DNA from: Candidatus Saccharimonadota bacterium
Lineage (GTDB): Bacteria; Patescibacteriota; Gracilibacteria; BD1-5; UBA2023
Reading direction: 5' to 3'
NCBI GenBank assembly: GCA_046350815.1
Contig: JAXLZO010000001.1
Location: 1,230,001 to 1,262,000, forward strand
DNA length: 32,000 nucleotides
Below the pieces are notes generated by a model. That model worked only from the letters and a program-made list of their open reading frames with translations, ran no database searches and was not told the DNA's origin. The position numbers were made by a program, and so were the translations under genes. Of the stretch, positions 556-29,688 are shown one piece after another. The first letter of the stretch is position 1; each line of letters starts with the position of its first letter.

Positions 556-1278
556 TTAACAGCTTATATTTTGAGGTTTCCAGAAAAAGAGATTAAATTT
601 CTTTTCTCATCTTAGTGTACTTTTTCTGAGTGAATACTTACTTCGTTCTTCAATCCGTTTTATAATTTCTATTTTCGCGGAACTGGTTTCAAGGTCTCGA
701 TTAACATAGGCAAGTGCTCACGCAAATATATCAGTCAGTTGCATTATTTCAACCTCGTGAGATCGTATGAGTTGTATTTTCTTTATGATCCTATGATTAA
801 AGTCATACATCGAATTTATAAGAACATCATTGAGTTTTTGTATTTTTTCTCAACCATTTGTATCTTTTATGTCTATATAGAAATTATAGCTATATTCAGG
901 ATCAATAATAGATAAAAGTTGCCAGTACATCTTATAGTACCAATCATTATATGTTTGATTGAATTGAGCGTGGTCGAGAGTGTCTTTATCTGTTATGACT
1001 AAGGCTCGAAGTACAATATCATCATCATCAAAAAAATAGTCTACCAAATCCAGATAAAAATCTTTTTTTGAATCCGATATTTTTGTCCATTTAACTTCTT
1101 GAAATTCTGATATTCAATGCTTTTTCTTGATTTCTTTTATCCGTGTAAAGATTTCAAATCTCTTATCTTGAGGCACTTGTACACCTGCAAGAACCATTAC
1201 TTTTTTATTTTGTCCATTGAGAGAATTATCATTCTCAAGGTGACAGCTTTCATCACAATAAAAATTGTATGTTGTCAT
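556..1278 (-). CDS. DUF3800 domain protein
   Basis: It runs from ATG at 1276-1278 to TAA at 556-558 (240 aa) and includes track ORF 850..1047. The N-terminus is MTTYNFYCDESCH, the DUF3800 Y-x-DES motif, followed by EVKWTKIS. The C-terminus is SHEVEIMQLTDIFA-G-ALAYV, and the motif Gly is encoded by TGA. Confidence 0.75.
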
Positions 1279-1282
1279 AGAT

Positions 1283-3025
1283 TTATTGGATTATCGCAGA
1301 TAAAACCCCATCCGTTTCTGCTTCGAGAGCGAGTATATCTCTCGTGATGTCTTCGAGACTTCGAGGTGGAGTGTATTCGTAGAAGTATTTATTGAAGTTG
1401 ATCTCATATCCTACTTTTTTCTCCTTCTCGCTGATCCAAGCATCAGGAGCAAATGGGAGGACTTCTCGTGCGAAGTATTCCTGTATATCTTCTTTGAGTG
1501 GGATATTTTCCTTATCTCTCAGGTCTGCATCTGGTTCTGGTTTTCCTTTCTTTGTGATGATATTTCCATTCTCATCCCTCTTTGGTCGTTCGACGATGAT
1601 CTGAGTGTAGCCGAAGTCTTCATTATCAAATATCTTTGAGTATTCTGTTTCCTTGAATCCATCAAAAAGCTCATAAATTTTCTGGATTCCTGCATCTTTT
1701 ATCTCATTTCTCTTGCTTCCGAGACTCTTCGTCATCTTCGTGAAGAACTCACTACTTGTAGCATTGATGAGTTGGATTTTACCTTTCTTGTGAGTAGGTT
1801 TTCGGTTCGTCATTACCCAGATATATGTCCCAATTCCAGTATTATAGAAGAGTTCTTTTGGGAGAGCAATGATGGCTTCGAGATAGTCATTTTCGATTAT
1901 ATGTTTACGAATCTCACTCTCTCCGCTTCCTGCATCTCCTGTGAAGAGAGCAGAACCATTGTGTACTGAGGCGATACGAGTCCCGAGTGGTGTATCGTGT
2001 TTCATTTTCGAGAGCATATGAAGGACGAAGAGGAGCTGTCCATCATTGATACGAGGAGTACCTACAGAGAATCTCTGGTCGAGTATTTCCTTTTTCTTAC
2101 CTGTAGCGAGCTTATCTTCGTCAGTCTTCCAAGACTTTCCATAAGGAGGATTCGTGAGGATAAAATCAAATCTCTCATTAGGAAATCCATCAGCCGAGAG
2201 GGTTGAACCATAGGCAACTTTATTATCTCTTTCTCACTTGAGGAGCATATCAGCCTTACAGAGTGCGTATGTCTCAGGATTTACCTCTTGTCCGAATGTA
2301 AATATATTTCCACTTGATTGAATCTTGCTCTCATCTCACTGGATAAACTCTTTTGATACCGAGAGCATACCACCACTTCCTACACACGGATCATAGATAG
2401 TGATGGGCTTATCTTTAATCTGACTTTGTACAGGGAGGAAGAGTATATTTGTCATCAGACGGATTACCTCACGAGGAGTGAAGTGCTCTCAGGCTTCTTC
2501 ATTGTTTTCTTCATTGAACTTTCGGATCAGTTCTTCGAATACATATCCCATATCGTGATTGGAGAGATTTTTTGGAGAGAGCTTTTCACTTTCACCACTG
2601 AACTCTTGGATAAGTCGGAAGAGTATATCTGCTTCTTCGAGTGTCTGAATTTGATTCTCGAATTTGAATTTTTGAAGAATATCTTGGATATTTTGACTAT
2701 ATCCATTGATATACTGTTTAAAGTTTGCTCTAAGATTGATAGGATCATTGAGAAGTTTCTTGAGCGTAAAAGGAGAAGTATTATAAAAAGCGTATCCTGT
2801 AGCACGCTCCAGAATTGGCTCGATATTGGTGATCTTGTCTTTGAATTTTTCATACTCTGCAAGAACTTTTTCTTTTGTCTCGATAAGCTCACTATCTATG
2901 CGAGTGAGGACGGTCATAGGGAGGATAACATCTCGGTACTTTCCTTTCACATAGATATCTCGAAGGACATCATCAGCGATTTTCCAGATAAAATTGATGA
3001 TAACTGAGTTGTTCTGTTGAGTCAT
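1283..3025 (-). CDS. hsdM: type I restriction-modification system, N6-adenine DNA methyltransferase subunit M
   Basis: Track ORFs 2489..3025 and 1283..2017 share a frame, and the gap between them reads through TGA. It has an HsdM N-terminal domain (IWKIADDVLRD), AdoMet motif I (IYDPCVGSGGML) and motif IV (FILTNPPYGKSW). It is 580 aa and ends in TAA. Confidence 0.9.
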
Positions 3026-14422: not shown

Positions 14423-15634
14423 TTATAGCTGTGTGGGTGGAAGGTTGGAATTTGATGTTGTAGGTACATCAGTTGAAGTAAGTATTCGAGTATTTTCTCT
14501 CTGTTTCATACGAAGCACATAGATAATTCCTCAAGCAATAATGCCGACAATCGTCAGTATAAGTAAGGCGAGCAAAGGTCGATATACAAACCAAGCTGTA
14601 ATAACCACTCATCCACCGAGCACAACGGTCGCAAGAAAAGCCAGCAAGGATACTCCAAAGTTAACAACATGCCCAAGAAATGGCAAAAACATAGCGAGCA
14701 TTGGCAGAATCGAGAGAAACAAGCCAAATCCGAAGAAAATAAGAAAGAATCAGAGACCGCGAAATATCCACGTCATAAGAGTATTTTCTGATTCCATATC
14801 TGCAAACATCTCTTGTGCGCTCTTATTACCAGCTGATACACGAGTGATATCCGCATCAGAACTTGCAATATAGGTAGAGAGAGAATTTTGTGTTTGTTTT
14901 GCAAGAATGCTGAGTTTGAGAGGACTCTCGGCAACTTTATAAGTAACACGAAGGTCTCCTATAGTAGGACTATTTTGATTCGCGCCAACATAGAGCGTAT
15001 TTCCAGAAATGATTTCACCACTCTGCGTCATCATCCCATGAGATGCAAGATTGATAGGAGTAGTCGGATCAATCTTGCCAATCAATTCTGATGTGAGATT
15101 GTATTGGTCTATATTGACTTGGGTGGCATGCCACATCTGTGAATCATACTTCCAATCTTTTGGATTCTCATGACCAGTTGTAGTATTGAATGAGGAAGAA
15201 TTATGTTTATCAGAATCCCATACTTTTGAATACGTATAAGTCGTCGTCGTAGTTTCACTTCATCCGACATTATCATGTGACTCGGTATGCTTCTTCTCTT
15301 CCCACTGATACATCTCTACGTGACGATCGAGGACAATACCCGTAATACTCAGGCCAACTTCCGGATCACGAAGTATATCAGAGGTCGTCGCATCACCCAC
15401 AAGATGAACAAGTTTTCATTCATTTGTTGGATCGATAGAATTTTCTTGGATCTCCACAACAGACTTGCGTCCTTCATTCATACCGGCAATCATTCGAGCA
15501 TTGTTTCCTTCGTTCGTCCAGAGTAGTACAGAACCACCAATGATGAGAATTGGCCCAACAATAATTCCAGCAAGCGCTGATTTGATACGAGATCCCCAGG
15601 ATTTCGTAGTTGTAACGGTAGTAGTATCAGACAT
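14423..15634 (-). CDS. TMEM43 / DUF1625 family membrane protein
   Basis: The N-terminus SWGSRIKSALAGIIVGPILIIGGSVLLWTNEG matches the pattern I recall for bacterial TMEM43 homologues. A long extracytoplasmic middle region is followed by C-terminal TM helices. Track ORFs 15416..15634 and 14750..15136 share a frame. It ends in TAA at 14423. Confidence 0.7.
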
Positions 15635-17719: not shown

Positions 17720-17754
17720 AAAAAAAATATCTCATAAAATGAGATATTTTTTTT
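17720..17754 (-). terminator. intrinsic terminator after the ABC-F gene
   Basis: The sequence aaaaaaatatctcat-aaa-atgagatattttttt forms a 15-bp AT-rich stem that abuts the ABC-F stop codon. Confidence 0.7.
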
Positions 17755-19216
17755 AATCCAAATCCAAATAGTCATCAATCCTTACCTGCCATACAAATTC
17801 ATCCACATGCGATACAAGTATCATCGCACCCTCATACTGATCAAGTGCCTGAGCAATGATAGGGATATGTCGGAAATTGATATGATTGGTTGGCTCATCG
17901 AGGATGAGGAGTCCTGGCTTGAGGAGAACAAGTCGCGCAAACGATACAAGACCTTTTTGTCCTTCGGAGAGATCACCGATACGAGACATGATGAGCTTGC
18001 TATCGATGAGAAACCCAGCTGCAGTCTTACGGATTACCTCTTCTTTGACGGGATCACCCGACGCCTTGAGTGCATCTGAGAGACATTGATGAACACTCTG
18101 GTTAAAATCAAGCGTAGAGAAATCCTGACGATAGTACCCCACTCGCACGGCAGAACTCATAAACATCTTCGGAGCCGTACCATTCGCGATCGACTCAAGA
18201 AGGGTAGATTTACCAATACCATTTGGCCCAGAGAGAAGAAGGTGACGATCTTTTCCAAGTGATACCTCGACAGTCTTTGGGGTAGGAGTATGGTTTTTAA
18301 TAATGTTTACTTCCTTAAGTGAAATAATCACTCCACCAATATCTTCTTGCATCGGGATCGTGAATTCGCGAATAGTCTTATCTTCACGACGAACATCTAC
18401 CATAGACTCTTCGAGTTCTTCTGCTTTTTCGCGCATCTTCTTTGCCACAAGACGAAGTTTTCAACCCTTATGAGCGAAGACATTTGCTTGCTCTTTGTTT
18501 GCGATTGCTTCTTTTTCAAGGCGTGCATTCGCACGATTTTCCTTCTCAATCTGTGCAGCAATATCCTCTACTACTTTGTGATAATTCCCCATGTAGGTCT
18601 CCACCTTTTTGGTAAACACATCGAGATAGTAGACTCCATCCGTAAAGGCATTGAGAAATTCTGCATCATGGGAAATAACTACCACTGTTTTTTTGTATGA
18701 TTTGAGAAAATCTGTCAGATGCTCAATACCAGCTGTATCAAGATTGTTGGTCGGCTCATCGAGGAGAAGAACATCTGGATCCTGAACAATGGCAGCAGCA
18801 AGGAGGAGTCGTGCCTGTTGTCCTCCAGAAAATGACTTTACAACACGATCAAGTGGCGCAGAGAAATTCACCGCCTGAAGTGCCTTATTGATATCACGAT
18901 CCACATTATGAGCCTCTTTATCAGGGTGGTATTTGCGAAAATACTCTTGAAGAGTCAACTCTCTATCCTCATGAGGCATGACCTGACGAGCGATGGCAAT
19001 AGTCGCACCAGCCTCGCGATTTACTCGACCCTTAAATGGAACAAGCTCTCAAAGAATGAGCTTGAACATGGTTGATTTTCCAGCACCATTTTGCCCCATC
19101 ACAGTCATCTTTGCACCATCTCTCAGAGAGAAGCTTACATTCTCCATGAGGAGACGATCTTCACTATGACCAAAATAAACATCCTCGAATCTCAAGACTG
19201 AATTCCCACTCGACAT
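17753..19216 (-). CDS. ABC-F family ATPase (translation factor / ribosome-protection type), 487 aa
   Basis: It has two ABC cassettes and no TM domain. Cassette one has GQNGAGKST, FSGGQQARLLLA and LLLDEPTNNLD. Cassette two has GPNGIGKST, LSEGQKGLV and LILDEPTNHI. A charged linker joins them. Three same-frame pieces are joined across TGA, for example KLIL-G-ELVP. Confidence 0.9.
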
Positions 19217-19330
19217 AACAAACAAATCAAAAATAATGCGCGGATTATATTGAAAAATAGGGAAAATGGAAGAATTTTGACAAAATTATGTATCTATGTA
19301 TTTTATATACAAGAATTCTCATCTACAAAA

Positions 19331-19836
19331 ATGAAGAGCCAAAGAAGAAATTGATTCGATCTCGATGATACACTCATTGAATTTACTCCAGCATTTTTGA
19401 AGTTCTATAACGAAAAATACGGAACAAATCATGAGAAAAGAGAATTTCATAATTATCGATTCTGGGAGATTCTTGGTGGTACACGAGAGCGTATGACCGA
19501 GATCATACTCGAATATCATGAAACATGATTTTGCAAAAAATGTAGAAATCATCGATGGTATATATGAAGTGATTCAATCGCTCTATGAACGTGGTGAAGA
19601 CAACTATATTATCACATCGAGACCTGAATATATGGAACCCCATACTCAGGCAATCATCGAAAAACTCTTTGGTAAGAATATCAAGGATATATATTTCGAC
19701 AACCATTTTTCCATGCGTGGAACACCAAAAAAAGAAATCATAAATATGCGCATATTTATGAATAGATCGTATAGCCGAAGATTCTCTTGAATATACAGAA
19801 GATTGTACACAAGTTGTCCAAAAAATTCTTCTCTAA
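19331..19836 (+). pseudogene. HAD-superfamily hydrolase (NT5C / 5'(3')-deoxyribonucleotidase-like) interrupted by two +1 frameshifts
   Basis: The sensible protein sequence is spread over three frames. Frame one (19331-19522) reads MKSQRRN-G-FDLDDTLIEF...ILEYHE, which carries the DxDxT motif. Frame two (19524-19742) reads HDFAKNVEIIDGIYEVIQSLYERGEDNYIITSRPE...TPKKEII. Frame three (19744-19836) reads ICAYL-G-IDRIAEDSLEYTEDCTQVVQKILL*. Each switch needs one A to be skipped (about 19523 and 19743). Confidence 0.6.
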
Positions 19837-19859
19837 AAAAGCTCACGAAATTCGTGAGC
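19835..19859 (-). terminator. intrinsic terminator at the end of the surface-protein transcription unit
   Basis: On the minus strand the sequence is GCTCACG-AATTT-CGTGAGC followed by TTTTTT. It starts 18 nt after the TGA at 19877-19879. Confidence 0.75.
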
Positions 19860-19876
19860 AAAGTGGTATAGCTGTA

Positions 19877-20212
19877 TCAAATATGAGTAATATCAAGTTT
19901 CATTTTACGAGTACAATTTAGCAGTATGGTGAGTGCTAAATCTGCCTGAGATGACTCTTGTTTTTTCTTCTGCTCAAATTCGATACGAACTGTGAGTTTT
20001 TTACAATTTGCTTTAAAATCATCTCCTTTTGTAATGATATTAAGGTATTGTAAAACGATAACATAGAATGAATGTTGAATATCTTCCGGGACAGTCTTGT
20101 ACAGTTCTTGCGGACTTGCAAGCTCTGACTTAAAAAACGACTCAAGGTATCCATCAAAACATCTACGTTGGATCTCAAGATCTTCATAACCCATAGCAAG
20201 TGGCATATTCAT
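19877..20212 (-). CDS. hypothetical protein (111 aa up to UGA; the true 3' end is ambiguous)
   Basis: The ATG at 20210-20212 is preceded by AAGGAG with an 8-nt spacer, the clearest Shine-Dalgarno-like site I noticed among the start regions I inspected. There is no internal TGA. The frame ends only in TGA at 19877. Under table 25 it would read on to TAG at 19604-19606, through the terminator and antisense to the HAD gene. Confidence 0.5.
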   Translation of the reverse strand: MNMPLAMGYEDLEIQRRCFDGYLESFFKSELASPQELYKTVPEDIQHSFYVIVLQYLNIITKGDDFKANCKKLTVRIEFEQKKKQESSQADLALTILLNCTRKMKLDITHI

Positions 20213-20342
20213 TGGTCTGACTCCTTGTTTCAAAAACCAAACACATTCATCATATAAAATTTTATATTTTTACAAGAAGAATGCATTTCTGAGCAAAATA
20301 AGATCCCGATCAAATAAACTGAATTTTCTACAAAAATAAATC

Positions 20343-21062
20343 CTAATTATTTCCTCGTTCTATTTTGTTTACCTCTAATGAAAGAGTCATACTTTTTCCA
20401 GCAAGAGGATGTCAAGTAGGATAAGACACGGTAACATACTCTCATTCGATTTTATCAATGCGAATTTTTCATCCATTCCACTCCCCTTCAGATCAAACCT
20501 TCAAGACAGGGTCACGAAAAGGTGAGAGTGGATTTGAGATTCGGAGAGTAGCTTTTCCATCTTTTATTTTCATAACAAGCACATCAAATCAGTTTTTCGT
20601 CCCACGAGATCAGACACGAATTTTTTCATCAGAAAAAGTATAAGCACTTCCGCTCGCATTCAAAGATTCAAGAGAGACAGCCTCAGATATACTTGGGAGT
20701 ATCTGACTCAAACGCAGTATCTTTGTTTCGCGAACATCACCATATAATTTATCTGGTGAGAGTTTTATCTCTCTTTTTTCTCACTCTTTCATTCCGATAA
20801 GTGATTCATGAAGTCCAATAAATGGAAGTGATCAACTTCAAACGATGATAGTTTCTGTAAGGAGCTCTCATGTTTTTCACTCTTCAGATAGGGAATATGT
20901 AGTCAAAACTTGATCTCATGAATGAACTTTTGCAGGAATGTTTTCAGAGATAGTGACACTATCACGCTGATAGTAAGTCTGCCTATATACCATGAACATC
21001 CCTAGTAAAACGATCACAAAGATACATATGAGACTGATAACGGTGATCTTCTTTGTATTCAT
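20343..21062 (-). CDS. membrane-anchored FKBP-type peptidyl-prolyl isomerase (SlyD/FkpA-like), 239 aa
   Basis: The N-terminal anchor is MNTKKITVISLICIFVIVLLGMFMV. FKBP core blocks are IIV-G-S-G-SLPFIGLHESLIGMKE-G-EKREIKLSPDKLYG and the C-terminal -G-HPLAGKSMTLSLEV. I walked it codon by codon and found 12 in-frame TGA and no TAA or TAG until TAG at 20343. The ATG is 4 nt after the upstream gene's stop. Confidence 0.8.
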
Positions 21063-21066
21063 AGAA

Positions 21067-23388
21067 TTAATAAGGATTAGTAAAAGATGAAGTCGTTGTC
21101 GGTGCGCCACCAGCACCTCATGCATCTCCCCTACTATGAACAACAATACAAAATCTTCCACTCGGTGCTCTAAATTCACCACGAAGACAGGTGTCTCGAA
21201 GTGGGGTTGGAGTTATTGTTGGACTTGATGGCGGCGTATCTGAAGAGGCTGCACTACAATGAACTCGCTCAACTGAATTTGTATTACCAACGCAATACCA
21301 TGACCAACTCCTATAATAGAGTTGATTATTTACTGTTCGAAAATCTTGCACAGTATTTCCTTCAGCACAATTACCAACTGATGTAGCCGTTGCCGACTGT
21401 CCAGAACCGATTTCTCATATTCGGTAACCACATGCAGCAGCAATAACAATACCGGTACAACTACTATTACACGAGCCAGCTATTCCATTTTGCAATCCAT
21501 CATCACACACCTCTGTTCATCCGACCGTACCATCTCAACATTGATGAGTGGCGGATATTTTGATATGAACCGAAGAATCACCTAGTTGAAGTGGAAAAGT
21601 TGTATTATCATCAGCAATCTGGTAACAATTTAAAGTATGTATAATTTCTTTTGGATCTGGATCGATAGGCCATGATAAGGCATAATAAGTACCTCATCAA
21701 TTCGATTGACCATTGCAAATAAGGCTATCATCAGCCACATCTGATGTCCATAAAACATATGCATGTATGGGATCTAATGAATTTAATTCAGATTTAGTAA
21801 GGCTCTTATTTATTATAGGAATAGAATCATTGGGAAGTTTCGTCCATGATAATTCAGCGGTTCATAATTCATCTCTTGGTTTAGATAAATTATACGCGAC
21901 AGAATCCCGAGCAAACTTCACAGCAACTTCAATAGTAGGAGGCAAAAATACATATATATTTTTGGTTACAGTATGCTCACCATTGTTGACATCAATACAT
22001 GTAAAAACATAGGACTTCATTTGACCAATCTTATAATGACGAATCGGATCATACGATCGCTGAATCCATTCTGGTTTAACGGTAAAATTTGGATACTTAT
22101 CTTGAGGTACAAATCAACCTGTTGCCGTATAAAAAATATGTGTATCTGATGAGCTATTACCAGTCGTTTCATTCAGAGTTGTTGTGCATGATTTCATACC
22201 ATTGGCCAACAGGCTCACTTGTATTGGCTGACCACTCATAATTTTATCTCATCCAGCTGAAGTTTGCATAGTTACAGAAAGCTGTGTCCTAATATATAAA
22301 CTCACATATGCTTGAGATGATACAGTTCTTGTCTCTGATCCTATTCTTTGAGTATGAAAACATTCAAGAATATAATCTCTTCTTTTATCAGGAGTAACTT
22401 GTTCCATTCATATAGGTTGTTTGGATCCACTCCATCAGCCACCCGATGCTTCGCACGTATCTGCATTCGATGCCATCCATACCAATGTTCGGCTCTCTCA
22501 GAGATCCATCTCCGTACTCGTCGTACTTCATGTCATACCGAAGAGTATCGTGGGAGTAGTCGGATGGATAACTTCTATTTGCGGCGTACTTCGAACAATA
22601 CTATCTCCTTGTAGCGACGTGCAAGAGAGAGTGAAGTAGGTACTACTACGAAGTGGACTACTCGAATACGTACCTCCCGTAGCACTCACTGCTCAAGATG
22701 TATAACTTCCACTTCCTGTGATTCATGAACATGATCTCAGATTTGCACCAGTCCATGTAAGTGCAACAGTCTGACCAGAGAATATCTGCGTTGCCGAGAC
22801 CTCAAATGTTAGGGAAGGTGGTCATGGGATCATCTCTACACGAATAGTCCGATCTCCGGTATTCGTCCCATCCAATCATACGCAGCTCATAGTATACGTT
22901 TGAGAGATGTTGGATGTTACGGAAGGTACAACGATACTCATACTGCTTCTAACACGTAGCAGACTGCCAGAATTTGCACCCAAAGAACTTACATCCCAAT
23001 CCACACGACACGACCGAACATACTGTGGATTCCACGTGATCGTAAAAGTCTCACCTCAGCGAACCACACGGCTCGGATCGTTATCAAGACGGTTGCCATC
23101 GTTATCATTCGCCTGAAGTGTCAGTGTCGGAGAAGGTGGGGTCACCAAATTTTCAAACTTCTCACAAGCAGGCGTTCCATCATTCGAAAATCCCATCACC
23201 ACTCCACCCGTCGCACCCATAAGAGAATCACATGAAGAGTTTAAAATCTTCTGAAACTGAGAAACAATGGGATTTCACTGAATATTTGATCCAGTTGGAT
23301 AAGAGATTATCGGTGTTGCAAAAATTGCATTTGAATAAATCAAACTTATAAGAACTATCAATACTGATAAGGATAAATATTTATGCAT
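21067..23388 (-). CDS. secreted multidomain protein: Ig-like two-Cys repeats, CGDG/CDDG cysteine-rich repeat and a Pro/Thr/Gly-rich tail (773 aa)
   Basis: One frame is open from ATG at 23386-23388 to TAA at 21067-21069 with 19 TGA read as Gly. The hand translation gave exactly 773 aa and hits track ORF 21118..21351 in register. The signal peptide is MHKYLSLSVLIVLISLIYSNAIFA. Confidence 0.8.
21553..23139 (-). repeat. five tandem, divergent Ig-like domain repeats of about 90-125 aa (protein level) in the 773-aa protein
   Basis: A recurring pattern is P-x-L/I-T-F/L ... T/L-W ... N-x-x-S/T-C ... Y-x-L/M-S/E-C ... V-x-V/I. Examples are TITWNPQYVRSC...YTMSC, ALTWTGANLRSC...YFTLSC and LVWMASNADTCEASGGGWSG...YILEC. 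Two further copies occur in the upstream gene (aa 100-170 and 241-318). Confidence 0.6.
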
Positions 23389-23409
23389 AAAATTAAATAT
23401 GATTTAAAG

Positions 23410-25503
23410 TTATTTATTAATATAGTTAGGAAAAACATATTTATCAAATTGAGAAAGTGAATTTAAATCATACGTGCTTTTAACATAACCAGAAGATGGT
23501 CAATAAACAATTCAATTTCGAAACGATCCATGTGTGCTTGTTCAAAATGCATAGCTTCATATAGAAACAATACCATTTCAAAGATTAATAGATTGCAGTT
23601 TGTTTTCATAAAAAGCTCAATTTCAAATGGACTCAACCCCATTTGGAATTACTACTCATGTTAAGGAATTATTTGAGAATGCGGATTCACCAATATAACG
23701 AATATTATTTCATAATGAAAGTGATTCAAGTCAATTTCCATAGAATGTATATTTTGGAATAGTATATATGTTATCTGGAATATTTAGTGAGGATATGTTA
23801 TTCGCCATAAATGCTCAATCAGACAAAGTAATACTAGGTCGGCTTAAGAGAACTTGATCAACTGATTTAATATTATTCAACTTAAATGCATATTGCCTTA
23901 TCGTTAAAGGCACCAATGAAGGACGTATAATTAATGAAATATTGAATGACGAAGAAAATGCTCTTTCGTCAATGAGTTGGACATTAGTTCAAATAGTTAC
24001 TCATGAAAAATAATTAGCTGCAAACGCTTTTGTTCCGATATATTTAACACTATCTGGAATTACCAAATCTCAACTCAAATGTGCACCACGGAATGCTTCT
24101 TTTCAAATCCATACAAGACTAGATGGAAGAATGATCGAGTCAAATCATAAAAGGTCAGAAAAAGCATCATCTCCAATAGAAACAATTGGATATCACTCAA
24201 CTAACGATGGGAATCTAAGTGTTATGGATGATGCTCCACATAATAAATTCCCATATTGATTTTGTGGCGCAGAATCAATATGTACACCAATTGTTGAAGA
24301 AGACTTATTGATCCAATAAGAACTCCGACCATCAGTAGGGGAAATGTAATCAACAAAGCTATACGTAAAACATCGTGGATCAATAAAACTACACTGACCA
24401 TCATTACAACTGACCGTAGCACCACCTTGAGCATCATTTTGACATGTCAATCATCCATTTTGAGGTGTTGGATTCGTACAGGTACGAGTTTTGGTGCAAC
24501 TCGTCTGACATGCACCAAAACTTGACCAACCACCAGGAATAGGTGGAGGTGTCACAGTCACTGAAACACTTTTTTGCATTTGGCGACCAGCATCATCGGA
24601 ACAAGTGATACGATAGGTGGAAGTTGTTGTTGGATTGATCAAAGCAGATCATGAGGCACTTCCATTGACCGCAAAGGCATCACTCGTCGTACAGCTCGTG
24701 AGATTTCCAGCTTGCCATGCAAGTGTGACTGGATCTCATGGGGCAATATTTGATGGTGTGGCAGTAAAGTTAATATACGGATCACTGGAGCCAGGACAGC
24801 TACCTGCGGACATCAATGAACTCGCCACAACGCATTTTGGTTTACCATTTGCCTCAAAACCAACAATCACCTCATTGCTCGAGCATTTTCCTATTTCTCA
24901 TCCAAGATTCGAGAGATAGTTACCAAAAATTCCTCATGTAGATTCGCCACCTGGATTCATTGTAGGCCATACAATACCACCACCAATTGCTCAGATAGAT
25001 GCTGTGTTCATTGTCTGAGATACGGTTGATCCATCTGTACCAGAACAAGAGAGAGTATAGGAGCTACCATTCGCAGGAACATCAATACTTCATCCAGTAG
25101 CAGTCGTTGAAATGCCAGAGATAGAACACTGCGTGGTATTCTCAGATGACCAAATCAAACGAATTTTGGATGATACAGGACTACTACCAAATGTAAAATC
25201 AAGTTTTGGGTAAGAGTTAGTAGCTGGACATAGACCAAAATTTGCTACAGATATGAGTGAGTTTGCATTCGCACATTCCTTTATGCCCGTTGCTTTGTTA
25301 ATAGCGACAAGTACTTTATTTCCATCACATCTCCCGAGAAGATTCTGAAAATATGTCTTGAGTACACCACCAGGCACCTCTCAAGTGGGTGGATGGTTGG
25401 GCCATGAAGTACTCGCGGTTGCTGCAAATGCAATAATACTCATCATAAGGACGACAAGAAAAACGGTACTTATTCTTCCTATTATCTGAAAAAAACGCTT
25501 CAT
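23410..25503 (-). CDS. secreted protein: Ig-like domains, thrombospondin-type-1-like repeat and C-terminal BspA-type leucine-rich repeats (697 aa)
   Basis: One frame is open from ATG at 25501-25503 to TAA at 23410-23412 with 25 TGA read as Gly. It stays in register with track ORFs 25090..25377, 24451..24642 and 24193..24450. The signal peptide is MKRFFQIIGRISTVFLVVLMMSIIAFA. Confidence 0.8.
23509..24198 (-). repeat. BspA-type (LRR_5-like) leucine-rich repeat array
   Basis: Units of the form I-P-x-S-V-x-x-I-G-x-x-A-F recur. Examples are VIPDSVKYIGTKAFAANYFSGVTIGTNVQLIDERAF, NIPDNIYTIPKYTFYGNGLESLSLGNNIRYIGESAF and [37 protein letters not shown]. Most of the conserved IG glycines are TGA codons. 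Confidence 0.7.
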
Positions 25504-25564
25504 ACAAATATGGAATATACGATCAATATGGAATCATTGTACTGAAGAAAAAAAATGAAACAAT

Positions 25565-25593
25565 AAAAATACGTGGATATCCACGTATTTTTT
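25565..25593 (-). terminator. intrinsic terminator after rpoC
   Basis: The sequence aaaaatacgtgg-atat-ccacgtattttt forms a 12-bp stem with a 4-nt loop, 19 nt after the rpoC TAG. Confidence 0.85.
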
Positions 25594-25611: not shown

Positions 25612-28600
25612 CTAAAGGGAAATATATTCATCTTCACCTGCGTCATCAAATGCAGCAACTAATTCACCACTATCCAAATCATCATCACCTACCGATTCAA
25701 TCGCCATAGGACCGTCATAAACGGTTTCTGGAAGATAGTATGGAGTTTCCTCGAGATCTTCTTGACCAAAGTATTCACCGACATTTCGATTATTCTGAAA
25801 ATAATCAAGAGTTGGAATAAGTCGACCAATGATCACATTTTCTTTGAGACCTTCCAGTTTATCAATCTTTCGAGCTGTTGAAGCCTCAACCAACACACGA
25901 ACCGTTTCTTGGAACGATGCAGATGAGAGCCAACTTTCCGTAAAGAGAGAAATCTTCGTGAGACCAAGAAGAAGTCGAGTACCAATTGCCTGACGTTTCT
26001 CATCTTGCATGAGATTGTTGTTTTGTTTTTTGAACTCAATTACATCAACAATGTCACCAGGAAAGAATGTTGAATCACCAGCATTCGTAATCTTTACCTT
26101 TGAGAACATCTGACGAACAATGAGCTCAATATGCTTTGAATTTACCGTCTGACCCTGAGATGCATAGATCTCTTTGATGTCATTAACAATATAGAGTTCT
26201 GTCGAGAGAGGATCAGTAAGTTCCATGAGTCGCTGAAGGTTGATATGTCCTTCTGTCAGTTTGGATCCAACCTTTACGGATTCCCCTTCTTTCACAAGGA
26301 TAGAGCGAGATGCATCGATAGAATATTCGATCGTGCGAGGTGCCTCATCAACTATCACAATCGTATGCTTCGATACCTCTTGAATGATACCAGTATGCTC
26401 AGAGAGGAGTTTACCTTTATGTTCTGTAGATCGAGCAAGTGCTTGACGGGGGTCAATATGAGCTCATTTCTTCACAACAACTGAGTATGTATCATCAGGA
26501 ATATAATATTCATAACGATTCACTTCATCAGCCTTGATAGTCACAATAACAACCTGTCAATCATAGCGAAGTCCAACGACCTTTCCGGTCAACTCAGACA
26601 TAACCGCTTCACCCTTTGGTGCGCGTGCCTCAAGAAGTTCTTCTACACGAGTAAGACCCACCGTGATATCACCACCTTGTGTCGCAACTCAACCCGAATG
26701 GTATGTACGCATCGTGAGCTGTGTACCTGGCTCACCAATAGACTGAGCTGCAATAATACCTACTGGAGTACCCATGATCGCTCGAGCATTCGAAGAAAGA
26801 TCGAGACCATAACATTTTTGACATACACCCTCTGCCGTCTCACAAGTGAGAATCGATCGAACGTGTACCTCAGGGATCTCATGTTCGTTGAGTATAGCAA
26901 GAATTTCCTTCGTAACCAACTCCCCAGATGGAACAAGTACCTGTCCATGAAGCATAATATCACGAGCAACATGCTTTCCTTTGATTTTATCATCAAATGA
27001 TTCTCGGAACACAGATTTTGAGAGCTCTCGAGTTACTGTCTCATATTGGAGAGTTCCACAATCTTCTTCACGAATGAGAATATTTTGAGCAGCATCGACG
27101 AGACGACGTGTCAAATAACCAGATTGTGCTGTCTTGAGCGCCGTATCTGCCTTACCTTTACGACCGGAATGCGTATTGATAAAATACTCAAGCACTGAAA
27201 GACCTTCTTTATAGTTACCCTTAACTGGAAGCTCGATAGTTTTACCAGTTGGAGATGCTACCAATCATTTCATTCCACACATCTGAGCAACGTTACCCCA
27301 ATCTCAACGTGCACCAGAATCAATGAGATTGAAGATGGAGTTTTGTTGATTGAACGATGTTTTCATCTCAGCGGAAACCTGATTTTTTACGATATTCCAC
27401 ACCTTGATAGTCTGTTCATATCGTTCTTTGTCAGTCAGAAGACCATGCCAGTAAGCACGCTGAATAAGCTTGATTTTATCTTCCCCATGTCGTACAAGAT
27501 CATCTTTGTTTGCCGGAGTAAACATGTCAGATTTTGAGATTGAAAGACCAGAAACAGTTGCATATTTAAAGCCTGTATTCTTGATACGATCAGCAAAGAA
27601 TGCTGTCTCTTCGCCACCCTTAAGATCAAAAGATCGAGAGAGAAGTTTTTTAAGAGCTTTTTTATTGAGGGTCTCATTCACAAACCCAAGAATAGGATCA
27701 ACAACCTCATTGAACAAGACACGACCATATGTTGTCTCAAGAATCACACCTTCGATACGAATCTTGATAGGCATATGGAAGGTAATAACTCCGTTGTCAT
27801 ACGCCATGGTTGCATCTTCCTTGTTCGCAAAAACATGCTTTGCCTCCGTATCTTCATCCTTTCGAGTCAAATAGTAACACCCAAGTACCATATCCTGTGA
27901 AGGTGATACGATCGGTTCACCATTTGATGGATTGAGTATGTTCTTCGAAGTAACCATGAGTCGCGCTGCCTCCTCCTGTGCTTCATCAGTTATTGGTACA
28001 TGTACCGCCATCTGATCACCATCAAAATCGGCATTAAACGCACCACAACAAAGTGGATGAAGTTGAATTGCTTTTCCTTCGATGAGCCGTGGACGGAAAG
28101 CTTGAATACCAAGACGATGAAGTGTCGGAGCACGATTGAGAAGTACATGTTTACTTTTAATTACCTCATCAAGTGCATCCCACACCTCTCGTCCACCATC
28201 TTCGATAATTTTCTCGGCCATTTTCGGGGTAAATGCAACTTCATCTTCGATAAGTTTTCCGATAACAAAAGGCTTGAAGAGCGTGAGTGCCATAGATTTT
28301 GGCAATCCACATTCGTTCATCTTAAGTGTTGGACCTACGACGATTACTGAACGACCAGAGTAGTCAACTCGCTTACCGAGAAGGTTCTGGCGGAATCGAC
28401 CTTGTTTTCCCTTGAGAATATCTGCGAGGGATTTGAGCTTCTTACGATTTGCTGCAGTGTAACCTGGACGATTTGAGCGAACATCACCACTAATAAGTGT
28501 ATCAATAGACTCCTGAAGCATACGCTTCTCATTCTTGAGAATCACATCCGGAGCACCAAGTTGAGTTAGTTTTCTCAGACGATTGTTTCGATTGATAACG

Positions 28601-29688
28601 CGACGATAGAGATCATTGAGATCAGACGAAGCATATCGTCCACCATCAAGCTGAATCATTGGTCGAAGATCCGGCGGAAGAATTTGGAGTGCTTCAAGGA
28701 TAAACTGTCCTGGTTTTTGATCAGATTTAAAGAGAGAAGATGCAAGCTTCAATTTTTGAAGAATTTTCTTCTGACGAGATTTTGGAGCAGCCTTAAGTTC
28801 TGCTTGGTTTTCCGCTATGAAAGCACGAAGATCAATGCGATCAAGGAGAATCTTGATATACTCAGCACCCGTTCCACCCTTGAATACATGAGGGAACTTA
28901 TCATAGAGATGACGATAGTCCAATTCACCAATGACGACCGCTGGAGCGAGATCTTTAAGGAGTGTTTTAAGACCTTGATACTCTGCTTCAAGTACATCGA
29001 GTTGAGACATGAGACCAGCCTCAACTTCTGAGAACATCTTCTTTGTAATCGCTTTTTCCTCGAGTTTGAGTTTTGCCTCAGAGAGAGATGATTGGATTTT
29101 TCTCTGGAGCTCCGTCTTGTGAGTTTTATAGGCATTATCCAAATTTGAAAGAGCCTCATCACGCTTATCCTCATAAACATCAGTGATGATATAGCTCGCA
29201 AAATAGACAACTTGGTCGAGCTTCTTTGCAGAAACATCAAGAAGAAGGCCAATACGTGAAGGAACGGATTTGAGATACCAAATATGGACAACTGGAGCCG
29301 CAAGTTCAATATGACCAGTTCGTTGGCGTCGCACTTGTGATGTCGTAACCTCTACTCCACAACGCTCACAAATCACACCCTTATATCGAATACGCTTGTA
29401 TTTACCACAAGCACATTCGTAATTCTTGCGAGGACCAAAAATTTGTTCACAGAAGAGACCACCACGTTCAGGTCTTTGAGTACGATAGTTGATCGTCTCA
29501 GAGATGAGAACTTCACCATAGGAAAGGGAGCGAACTTCTTCTTTTGAAGAGAGCCCAATCGCAATACCCACAAGATTATCAAGAGTTTTACCTGCAGTAA
29601 TATCCTTCTTACCAGCATTTTTTCCAATCTGTGTATAATCGGTGATTTTATCATTGAGGAGATTCTCGAGAAGCTTATCAGAAAACAT
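25612..29688 (-). CDS. rpoC: DNA-directed RNA polymerase subunit beta-prime (1358 aa)
   Basis: Track ORFs 27304..29688, 26689..27264 and 25612..26358 share a frame. Recognisable blocks are the zinc-binding element [23 protein letters not shown], the catalytic [18 protein letters not shown]- (TGA at 27304), GMK-G-L (TGA at 27265) and YHSG-G-VA (TGA at 26689). It ends in TAG at 25612. Confidence 0.97.

Follow-up and report, generated by a model that had tools for sequence, protein, structure and literature searches.

A hypervariable three-gene locus next to rpoBC in a code-25 Gracilibacterium: two predicted secreted proteins, one with interchangeable ends, and a linked, anchored FKBP

In Thermococcales, the VARTIG system is a small conserved module with a large secreted protein of multiple immunoglobulin (Ig)-like domains, the C-terminal part of which is hypervariable by recombination between strains (Makarova et al. 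2021, PMC8416519). In a Gracilibacterium, a PTD-repeat surface gene, whose product is predicted to be extracellular, exhibits extreme within-population variation and was read as an attachment factor (Sieber et al. 2019, PMC6851277). Here, we analyzed a 32,000-nucleotide (nt) stretch of another genome of Gracilibacteria (hereafter, the window), namely, positions 1,230,001 to 1,262,000 of contig JAXLZO010000001.1 in GenBank assembly GCA_046350815.1, deposited as a Candidatus Saccharimonadota bacterium. Downstream of rpoBC, three genes on the minus strand (A, B, and C) encode two putatively secreted multidomain proteins and a predicted membrane-anchored FKBP. We found that these genes form an island of divergence between near-identical housekeeping genes and that a common stalk of protein A carries interchangeable tips. 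We propose, at a probability of about 0.55, that A, B, and C are cotranscribed and serve in surface recognition or attachment outside the cytoplasm, aided by a linked foldase. A metaproteogenomic study of Gracilibacteria (PMC11452946) mentions no such module, and the words leucine-rich, BspA, immunoglobulin, and peptidyl-prolyl are absent from it.

VARTIG is the closest described analogue in logic to A-B-C, but lineages and sequences differ. Moreover, the genes downstream are variable in VARTIG, whereas here A is followed by a conserved Ig-repeat protein (B) and the FKBP, without a toxin/immunity pair. Identity with the PTD-repeat gene was considered and rejected, since the two differ in locus and in mechanism: there, the nucleotides of tandem repeats vary while the peptide is kept, whereas the A-B locus has no tandem repeats and exchanges whole domains. 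Protein A further resembles the BspA-type leucine-rich repeat (LRR) proteins, including Tannerella BspA, Treponema TpLRR/LrrA, streptococcal PcpA, and HupY/LrrG, all of which are secreted LRR_5 binding modules. It differs from them in that its LRR is one of at least four tips borne on a stalk of N-modules (see below), Ig-like domains, and a TSP1-like repeat and in that Big_2, a choline-binding domain, and a sortase anchor are missing. Nor is A an orthologue of HupY, as it matches only part of the NCBIfam model for the adhesin HupY/LrrG, scoring 84 bits versus an equivalog cutoff of 1250 bits.

Among extracytoplasmic foldases, PrsA is a membrane-tethered parvulin lipoprotein of Firmicutes, and Mip and FkpA are FKBPs of Gram-negative bacteria. 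Protein C shares membrane tethering with PrsA, and its orthologues in a distant relative (L001) are lipoproteins. Like SlyD, it contains an FKBP core into which a chaperone-type domain is inserted, but SlyD is cytoplasmic and anchorless, and its insert comprises approximately 60 residues versus approximately 85 in C. Mip and FkpA carry a dimerization helix in place of the inserted domain. In contrast to these foldases, C is encoded inside the predicted operon of its presumed clients. As a putative variable surface-protein locus, A-B-C is of a known kind; the linked, anchored SlyD-type FKBP is unusual.

When the window was compared with contigs of its relatives (designated by L numbers), amino acid identity was 98.7 to 100% for rpoB, 95 to 99.7% for rpoC, and 98 to 99.6% for an ABC-F gene downstream of the locus, versus 79 to 87% for the A stalk (L009, L010, L011, and L013), 73 to 88% for B, and 71 to 94% for C. 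The ratios of nonsynonymous to synonymous substitution rates (dN/dS) were 0.05 for rpoC and 0.02 to 0.05 for ABC-F, versus 0.39 to 0.41 for the A stalk, 0.35 to 0.40 for B, and 0.19 to 0.31 for C. These data set the locus apart as an island of divergence, flanked by housekeeping genes that are nearly identical among strains.

Within this island, a replaceable cassette spans the end of A and the beginning of B (Table 1). It encodes the signal peptide of B as well as the tip of A, and no DNA homology was detected between the cassette of the window and L009, L010/L013, or L011/L012. In A, DNA homology to the window ends at position 24397 (L009), 24407 (L010), or 24517 (L011/L012), and it resumes inside B at 23325, 23227, or 23320; in L005, which also bears an LRR, it resumes at 23519. 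Among eight alleles, the common stalk carries at least four unrelated classes of C-terminal tips. The first is LRR_5, present in the window and in L005, whose LRR is only 33% identical. The second, in L009, is a 210-amino-acid domain of no known family; the third combines two Cys-rich repeats with a domain of approximately 255 amino acids (L010/L013, with a diverged version in the homologue P0052); and the fourth combines a canonical TSP1 repeat with a domain of approximately 365 amino acids (L011/L012 and P0054). The non-LRR tips matched nothing in Pfam or PDB and no toxin family. At the junction in the window, the GC content drops sharply, being 43.1% for the stalk and 31.5% for the tip. Since 57% of the Gly codons in the tip are TGA, which is read as Gly in this organism (genetic code 25; see below), the tip donor likewise used code 25, and the cassette circulates among code-25 genomes.

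Protein B varies internally as well. Its variable segment (Table 1) has no homology detectable by blastn in L003, L005, L010, or L011/L012, though both flanks align, and it corresponds to the poorly conserved columns 500 to 600 of the B alignment; in L012, the last approximately 140 residues of B are replaced. As for the mechanism, a diversity-generating retroelement was rejected, since the 32-kb window is devoid of long direct repeats and of template-like repeats and none of its annotated genes resembles a reverse transcriptase. Slippage was rejected because there are no tandem repeats in the window, which contains no silent cassettes either. A phage or defense origin was likewise discarded: PHROG matches were confined to the LRR and the Ig repeats, and PADLOC yielded none. 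In the ABC-F gene, identity to L005 and L006 is a mosaic in which blocks of 100% alternate with blocks of 83 to 90%; this mosaic suggests that homologous recombination between strains is frequent in general.

Comparison of gene order across relatives, which the initial annotation had proposed as a check, revealed that the set and order of A, B, and C are kept in every relative whose contig extends far enough. L013 (GCA_020632315.1) shows the order rpoB-rpoC-A'-B'-C'-terminator-NT5C-ABC-F, at identities to the window of 98.7% (rpoB), 96.3% (rpoC), 86.9% (A stalk), 74.4% (B), 83.3% (C), and 99.2% (ABC-F). The same order is found in L009 and L006, which belong to one assembly (GCA_964536125.1) with contigs split at the A/B boundary; here, the identities are 100% (rpoB), 99.6% (rpoC), 87% (A stalk), 94% (C), 97% (D, a small open reading frame [ORF] discussed below), and 99.6% (ABC-F). 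L012, a contig added by a metagenome scan, reads A'-B'-C'-terminator-NT5C-ABC-F; L005 reads A'(LRR)-B'-C-D-NT5C-ABC-F; and L010, in which A, B, and C are likewise found in this order, L011, and L003 contain parts of the arrangement. In the distant L001/L002, a protein with PPC (pre-peptidase C-terminal) domains is followed by an FKBP lipoprotein, A', B', a second FKBP lipoprotein, and a terminator-like hairpin. The identities of L001 to the window are 38% for A', 36% for B', and 56% for the C homologue, and its flanks differ. Because the order is kept in L001 with different flanks, A-B-C is a conserved set independent of rpoBC, in which the link to an FKBP persists, doubled, at deep divergence. 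L001/L002 also use code 25, with 13 (A') and 18 (B') in-frame TGA codons. At positions 2 to 1911 of L001, the protein that precedes the module is Thr/Pro rich and putatively secreted, with two PPC domains, and the extra FKBP lipoprotein comprises 180 amino acids. Two pattern scans of the GTDB species representatives, one with the B profile and one with the C profile, found no instance of the module.

Next to the set of genes, the domain composition of their products was examined. Protein A consists of a signal peptide, two units of a Cys-hairpin N-module plus an Ig-like domain, a TSP1-like repeat, and a BspA-type LRR tip. LRR_5 (PF13306) was matched with 139.3 bits versus a cutoff of 27.7 (E value of 8.2e-41) in two stretches within residues approximately 426 to 657, and the LRR also matches solved LRR_5 structures (such as 4fs7, 2e-21), among them BspA-like ones, TpLRR, and PcpA. 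Residues 306 to 384 match TSP1 domains in PDB, including those of UNC5B (the best, 2.9e-5), UNC5D, C7, and thrombospondin-1; in Pfam, TSP_1 gave no match to A of the window at an E value of ≤0.01, and the L011 allele passes with 29 bits versus a cutoff of 21.6 (E value of 1.2e-6). By alignment, A contains two Ig-like repeats and B contains five, and a Cys pair is conserved in every one of them. The N-module, which is approximately 55 residues long with one disulfide (WP..P.GE..GG...Y..N...C...V.GF...G.P.C), precedes the Ig-like domains, with two copies in A and one in B. No other part of either protein is conserved as well; the module is nearly invariant even at an overall identity of 36 to 38%. 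There is one hydrophobic segment in A, at the N terminus, and an even number of Cys residues (18). Because the hydrophobic core is long (approximately 18 residues), this segment may be an uncleaved signal anchor.

In protein B, a signal peptide and one N-module are followed by the five Ig-like repeats, one CxDG/CDDG Cys-rich repeat (CGDGTVGGTEVCDDGLQNGIAGSCNSSC), a Cys-rich C-terminal domain, and a Pro/Thr/Gly tail. The alignments, the translations, and the matches to LRR_5 and TSP1 structures bore out most of the domains that the initial annotation had read from the sequences of A and B. B again has a single, N-terminal hydrophobic segment and an even number of Cys residues (22). Neither A nor B contains the LPXTG motif or the C-terminal hydrophobic segment that characterize sortase-anchored proteins of the MSCRAMM type, and we agree that no wall or membrane anchor is recognizable in either. 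The repeat CGDGTVGGTEVCDDGLQNGIAGSCNSSC matches the Cys-rich repeats in the A tip of L010 at 3e-5, and the latter match Pfam DUF4215 at 4e-4, which is below Pfam's cutoff. No sequence match to B was obtained in Pfam, NCBIfam, or PDB. When a B profile was run against 1.84 billion protein representatives, 2561 proteins were hit. Among the matches listed, only one cluster is matched over the full length, and the others are matched via the Ig-like repeats only (profile positions of about 155 to 355); in four top matches, Pfam did not detect the Ig-like repeat. Near the C terminus of B (21067 to 21200, minus strand), the motif PLRDTC..GEF.APSGR.CI.V is invariant down to a homologue at 35 to 39% identity. 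This distant homologue ends right after the motif, and the Pro/Thr/Gly tail that lies beyond it in the window, containing RGD, is not conserved.

Protein C is composed of an N-terminal membrane anchor (residues 1 to 30, its sole hydrophobic segment) and a SlyD-type FKBP with an enlarged inserted domain. Residues 50 to 118 and 194 to 235 align to residues 6 to 76 and 97 to 136 of Thermus SlyD, including the HPLAGK strand, in an alignment too weak for residue-level scoring of the catalytic pocket. C matches NCBIfam PRK15095 at 2.3e-6, far below the model cutoff, and both FKBPs of L001 carry lipoboxes. With FKBP_C just above its cutoff, the two-block SlyD alignment, and the anchor, the membrane-anchored FKBP annotated initially was recovered, and we infer that C is a predicted SlyD-type FKBP prolyl isomerase/chaperone with its domain on the outer face of the membrane. 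The proposed hidden Markov model searches with table-25 translations assigned A to LRR_5, C to FKBP_C, and B to no family. Neither A nor B showed confident homology to a protein of nonsurface function in Pfam, NCBIfam, PDB, PHROG, or PADLOC; such homology had been named initially among the findings that would refute the module.

The three genes form a putative transcription unit. The gaps are 21 nt (A-B) and 4 nt (B-C), with a further 130 nt between C and D, and all four ORFs were rederived with the coordinates, order, strand, and gaps given initially, including AAGGAG before D. A terminator scan identified the hairpins after rpoC and at the end of the unit as the two best terminator-like sites on the minus strand between 17.5 and 30 kb. 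Both are sited right after stop codons, fold far better than shuffled sequence, and are conserved in relatives: the rpoC terminator is kept in L009 and shows a compensatory C-G to U-A stem change in L013 and L014, and in strains without D the downstream terminator lies about 30 nt past the stop codon of C. The two boundary terminators annotated before are thus real, and the statement that there is no internal terminator holds as well, the sole other minus-strand candidate within the unit being a weak 5-bp stem inside B (21736 to 21723, z score of −2.9). The number of terminator-like sites in the region (9 observed versus 6.8 ± 2.4 expected) is not above chance; hence, the terminator argument is carried by the two boundary hairpins alone. 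Directly past the rpoC terminator lies the block TTCAGTACAATG, at which the homology of L012 to the window begins exactly. It was not listed by a promoter scan, whose thresholds it did not reach, and it is probably the promoter of A-B-C itself. Close gaps, the lack of a strong internal terminator, strong end hairpins, and a conserved upstream −10-like box are the features observed for a single operon, and A-B-C is predicted to be cotranscribed.

Table 1. Features of the A-B-C locus and its surroundings (window positions)
Feature	Positions	Strand	Remarks
rpoC	25612-29688	minus	
Intrinsic terminator after rpoC (upstream boundary)	25565-25593	minus	dG −18.8 kcal/mol, z −7.1
Block TTCAGTACAATG, putative promoter	25535-25546	minus	−10-like TACAAT; identical in the window, L009, L012, L013, and L014
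Gene A	23410-25503	minus	697 aa, 26 in-frame TGA; MFO0764402.1, "leucine-rich repeat protein" at NCBI
Conserved A stalk	24397-25503	minus	residues 1-369, GC 43.1%
TSP1-like repeat of A	24388-24543	minus	residues about 321-372; recombination junction at or just before its end
Replaceable cassette	23326-24396	minus	~1.1 kb: A tip (residues 370-697), A-B spacer, first ~20 codons of B
Gene B	21067-23388	minus	773 aa, 19 TGA; MFO0764401.1, hypothetical at NCBI
Internal variable segment of B	21675-21920	minus	residues about 490-571, GC 34%
Cys-rich repeat CGDGTVGGTEVCDDGLQNGIAGSCNSSC of B	21457-21540	minus	CGDG...CDDG, DUF4215-like; residues 617-644, from translation
Gene C	20343-21062	minus	239 aa; MFO0764400.1, hypothetical at NCBI
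Strain-specific insertion with ORF D	19863-20284	minus	about 422 nt between C and its terminator
ORF D	19877-20212	minus	start at 20212; 111 codons, then TGA (19877-19879)
Intrinsic terminator at unit end	19835-19859	minus	hairpin 19859-19841 plus T-run; dG −12.3 kcal/mol, z −4.5
NT5C/HAD-type 5'-nucleotidase gene	19331-19836	plus	convergent
ABC-F gene	17753-19225		

The surface-recognition module suggested by the initial annotation gains from the divergence island and from the conserved stalk with its interchangeable tips, and it shrinks from four genes to the three that are conserved. We envisage that it could work as follows. A, B, and C would be made from one transcript, which would start at a promoter of their own past the rpoC terminator and end at the terminator after C. 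A and B would be exported by their Sec signal peptides as disulfide-rich strings of Ig-like beta-sandwich domains, and C, tethered on the outer face of the membrane by a signal-anchor helix (by a lipid anchor in the distant relative), would aid the folding of their Pro- and Cys-rich domains on exit from the Sec channel. The conserved N-terminal parts would retain A and B on the cell surface or join the two proteins together, while the tip of A (here, the BspA-type LRR) and the variable parts of B would contact a ligand on another cell or surface. Homologous recombination at the conserved junctions, where the TSP1-like repeat of A ends and within the 5' part of B, would swap the cassette of approximately 1.1 kb among code-25 strains and thus provide each strain with its own binding end. 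Attachment to a host cell would be the predicted outcome.

Several points weigh against this reading. Having no recognizable anchor, A and B could be released rather than surface bound. The Ig-like repeat also occurs in unrelated contexts without an FKBP, in one protein in an unrelated Gram-negative context, and the module is known from a narrow clade only (about a dozen contigs). The overall dN/dS of 0.35 to 0.41 reflects relaxed or mixed constraint and not demonstrated positive selection. The FKBP_C membership of C is marginal (22.2 bits versus a cutoff of 21.1, E value of 1.8e-4; PDB E value of 1e-4), and the foldase, initially called dedicated, is tied to A and B by synteny only, which that word overstates. 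Finally, AlphaFold2 models were unusable, with predicted local distance difference test (pLDDT) scores of 40.6 for B (4-sequence alignment) and 37.0 for A (6 sequences), so that the domain folds assigned to A and B are based on sequence patterns and repeat homology. A PDB fold search with the low-confidence B model returned generic beta-sandwich arrays only (TM scores of 0.11 to 0.19) and was treated as uninformative.

Three other explanations were weighed. A and B might be structural proteins of the envelope or of a surface layer (S-layer), or else phage receptors or decoys, in which case they would vary to evade phages or predators rather than to select a host ligand, and C would be their foldase. 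Both proteins are anchorless strings of beta-sandwich domains, the low-confidence fold search gave the S-layer protein SbsB and macroglobulins, a divergence island with cassette replacement fits such a role, and phages of Gracilibacteria are documented (PMC10746230). On the other hand, BspA-type LRR and TSP1-like repeats are typical ligand-binding and not lattice-forming modules, and the replacement of the distal end by unrelated folds suggests a change in specificity over a mere change of antigenic surface. We regard this explanation as unlikely, and it is the one that survives best.

We consider it quite improbable that the genes are adjacent without a functional link. C would then be a foldase for extracytoplasmic proteins in general, and A and B would be secreted, unrelated proteins encoded by chance at a site downstream of rpoBC that is prone to recombination. 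The genes are linked by synteny only, the D site and the adjoining NT5C are rearranged, which points to a generally unstable region, and the Ig-like repeat is found without an FKBP in other organisms. However, A, B, and C stay together in L001 at 36 to 56% identity despite different flanks, with the FKBP duplicated on both sides of the pair, and the short gaps (4 and 21 nt) are free of terminators. A polymorphic toxin or contact-dependent competition locus, in which A would deliver variable C-terminal toxins as in VARTIG-like modules, shares with A the layout of a conserved N-terminal region and recombined, unrelated C-terminal domains (PMC8416519), but we deem it highly improbable, since the tip of the window is an LRR binding domain, the other tips match no toxin family in Pfam and no solved structure, the gene after A is always B and never a small variable immunity gene, D does not covary with the tip type, and PADLOC found no matches.

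Returning to the surface-recognition module, a bolder version can be put forward tentatively: A-B-C might determine the host or prey range of this Gracilibacteria clade as a two-protein receptor-binding device at the surface, with tips shuffled between strains like the receptor-binding cassettes of phages, and might depend on its own membrane-tethered SlyD-type FKBP for folding outside the cell. If so, the tip type would predict the bacterium to which a strain attaches. For partner recognition by episymbiotic or predatory Gracilibacteria, the module offers a small candidate locus adjacent to rpoBC with a conserved stalk, interchangeable ends, and a linked foldase. No member of this clade has been cultivated, and metagenomes permit typing of the tip alleles and their correlation with the bacteria found alongside.

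The gene models depend on the genetic code. Under table 11, the window falls into short ORFs, and reading TGA as sense yields long ones, including rpoC and the 3' part of rpoB. There are five TGA codons in rpoC. The comparison with solved RpoC chains covered three of them, and each aligns with a conserved Gly (at DSGARG, GMRGL, and HTGG); hence, this Gracilibacterium uses code 25, in which TGA encodes Gly. The share of TGA among the Gly codons spans about a tenfold range between genes: lowest in rpoC and ABC-F (5 to 6%), it reaches 18% in the stalk of A and 27% in B and is highest in C (52%) and the tip of A (57%). A Shine-Dalgarno (SD) motif was found at 1 of 22 gene starts in the window, solely that of ORF D (AAGGAG, 8-nt spacer), in a survey in which the assumed coordinate missed a start codon for three genes (ABC ATPase, Nudix, and ABC-F); this genome does not seem to use SD-led initiation. 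We noticed that the close relative L013 (GCA_020632315.1, JACKFT010000001.1; rpoC 96% identical) was deposited under the name Candidatus Peribacteria/Peregrinibacteria and carries a code-11 annotation, which breaks rpoB, rpoC, A, and B into fragments. A relative in code 11 under another phylum name, with fragmented proteins, is a trap of annotation. The homologues P0003, P0048, P0049, and P0052 to P0055, from ENA/Logan gene calls, have Trp at TGA, as in code 4.

ORF D was counted as the fourth gene of the unit in the initial annotation. At NCBI, the locus tags of D, C, and B run from U0518_06160 to 06170. The insertion that contains D is flanked by an imperfect 13-nt direct repeat (19850 to 19862 and 20285 to 20297), which duplicates the left arm of the terminator. 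A D-type segment is present in the window, L005, and L006 to L008, and the site is empty in L003, L012, and L013, leaving a conserved unit of three genes. In L017, which represents a third allele, the 5' ORF is a different one, and what it has in common with D is limited to the final approximately 105 nt, the TGA, and the terminator (L017 positions 1 to 420). Pfam gave only subthreshold zinc-ribbon matches for this 5' ORF, and a suspected likeness to DUF2130 was not confirmed by Pfam. The site between C and the terminator (19850 to 20297) is therefore a hot spot of rearrangement, at which three alleles are found: empty, D type, and L017 type.

The size of 111 amino acids given for D requires TGA as a stop, in contradiction to the code used for A, B, and C. 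With TGA read as Gly, the frame remains open through the terminator to a TAG at 19604, antisense to NT5C, and NCBI annotates a hypothetical protein of 200 amino acids. The extension past the TGA is not conserved, as L005 carries an 88-nt indel. The lesson of D is that a neat combination of stop codon and terminator is not a stop in this organism. D is an orphan: all of its homologues belong to one cluster with it (≥90% identity), and neither phages nor plasmids yielded a match; its dN/dS values, 0.38 and 1.83, derive from few substitutions. Because D is near-identical (94 to 97%) among strains with different A tips and missing from others, it is not the cognate partner of the A tip. In the simplest reading, D is a mosaic ORF, probably nonfunctional, at a site prone to rearrangement. 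D may be of foreign origin, from a donor with the standard code, and code-11-compatible phages of Gracilibacteria have been reported (PMC10746230). A role as a fourth member of the module or as an immunity protein was ruled out, since D is present or absent as an insertion/deletion polymorphism, lacks homologues beyond its own cluster, and is a mosaic. A noncoding RNA, considered for the low rate of synonymous substitution (dS), was rejected too: the mosaic identity profile explains the low dS, and there was no Rfam match.

In the window, NT5C is read in three frames, with shifts near 19525 and 19742, the second of which falls at a T7/T6 homopolymer, and its 3' end is 88 nt shorter than that in L005. 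The gene is an intact single ORF of 227 to 228 amino acids in L005, L012, and L013; the broken copy is either a pseudogene or a product of homopolymer assembly errors. Elsewhere in the window, a DUF3800 protein (6.5e-13) lies beside a type I HsdM methylase (N6_Mtase, 1e-62; HsdM_N, 3e-21) at 556 to 3025 on the minus strand, and an unannotated ORF of 161 amino acids is found at 68 to 553. A 403-amino-acid protein encoded at 14423 to 15634 (minus strand) matches TMEM43 (2e-71), a family whose best-known members are nuclear-envelope proteins of eukaryotes.

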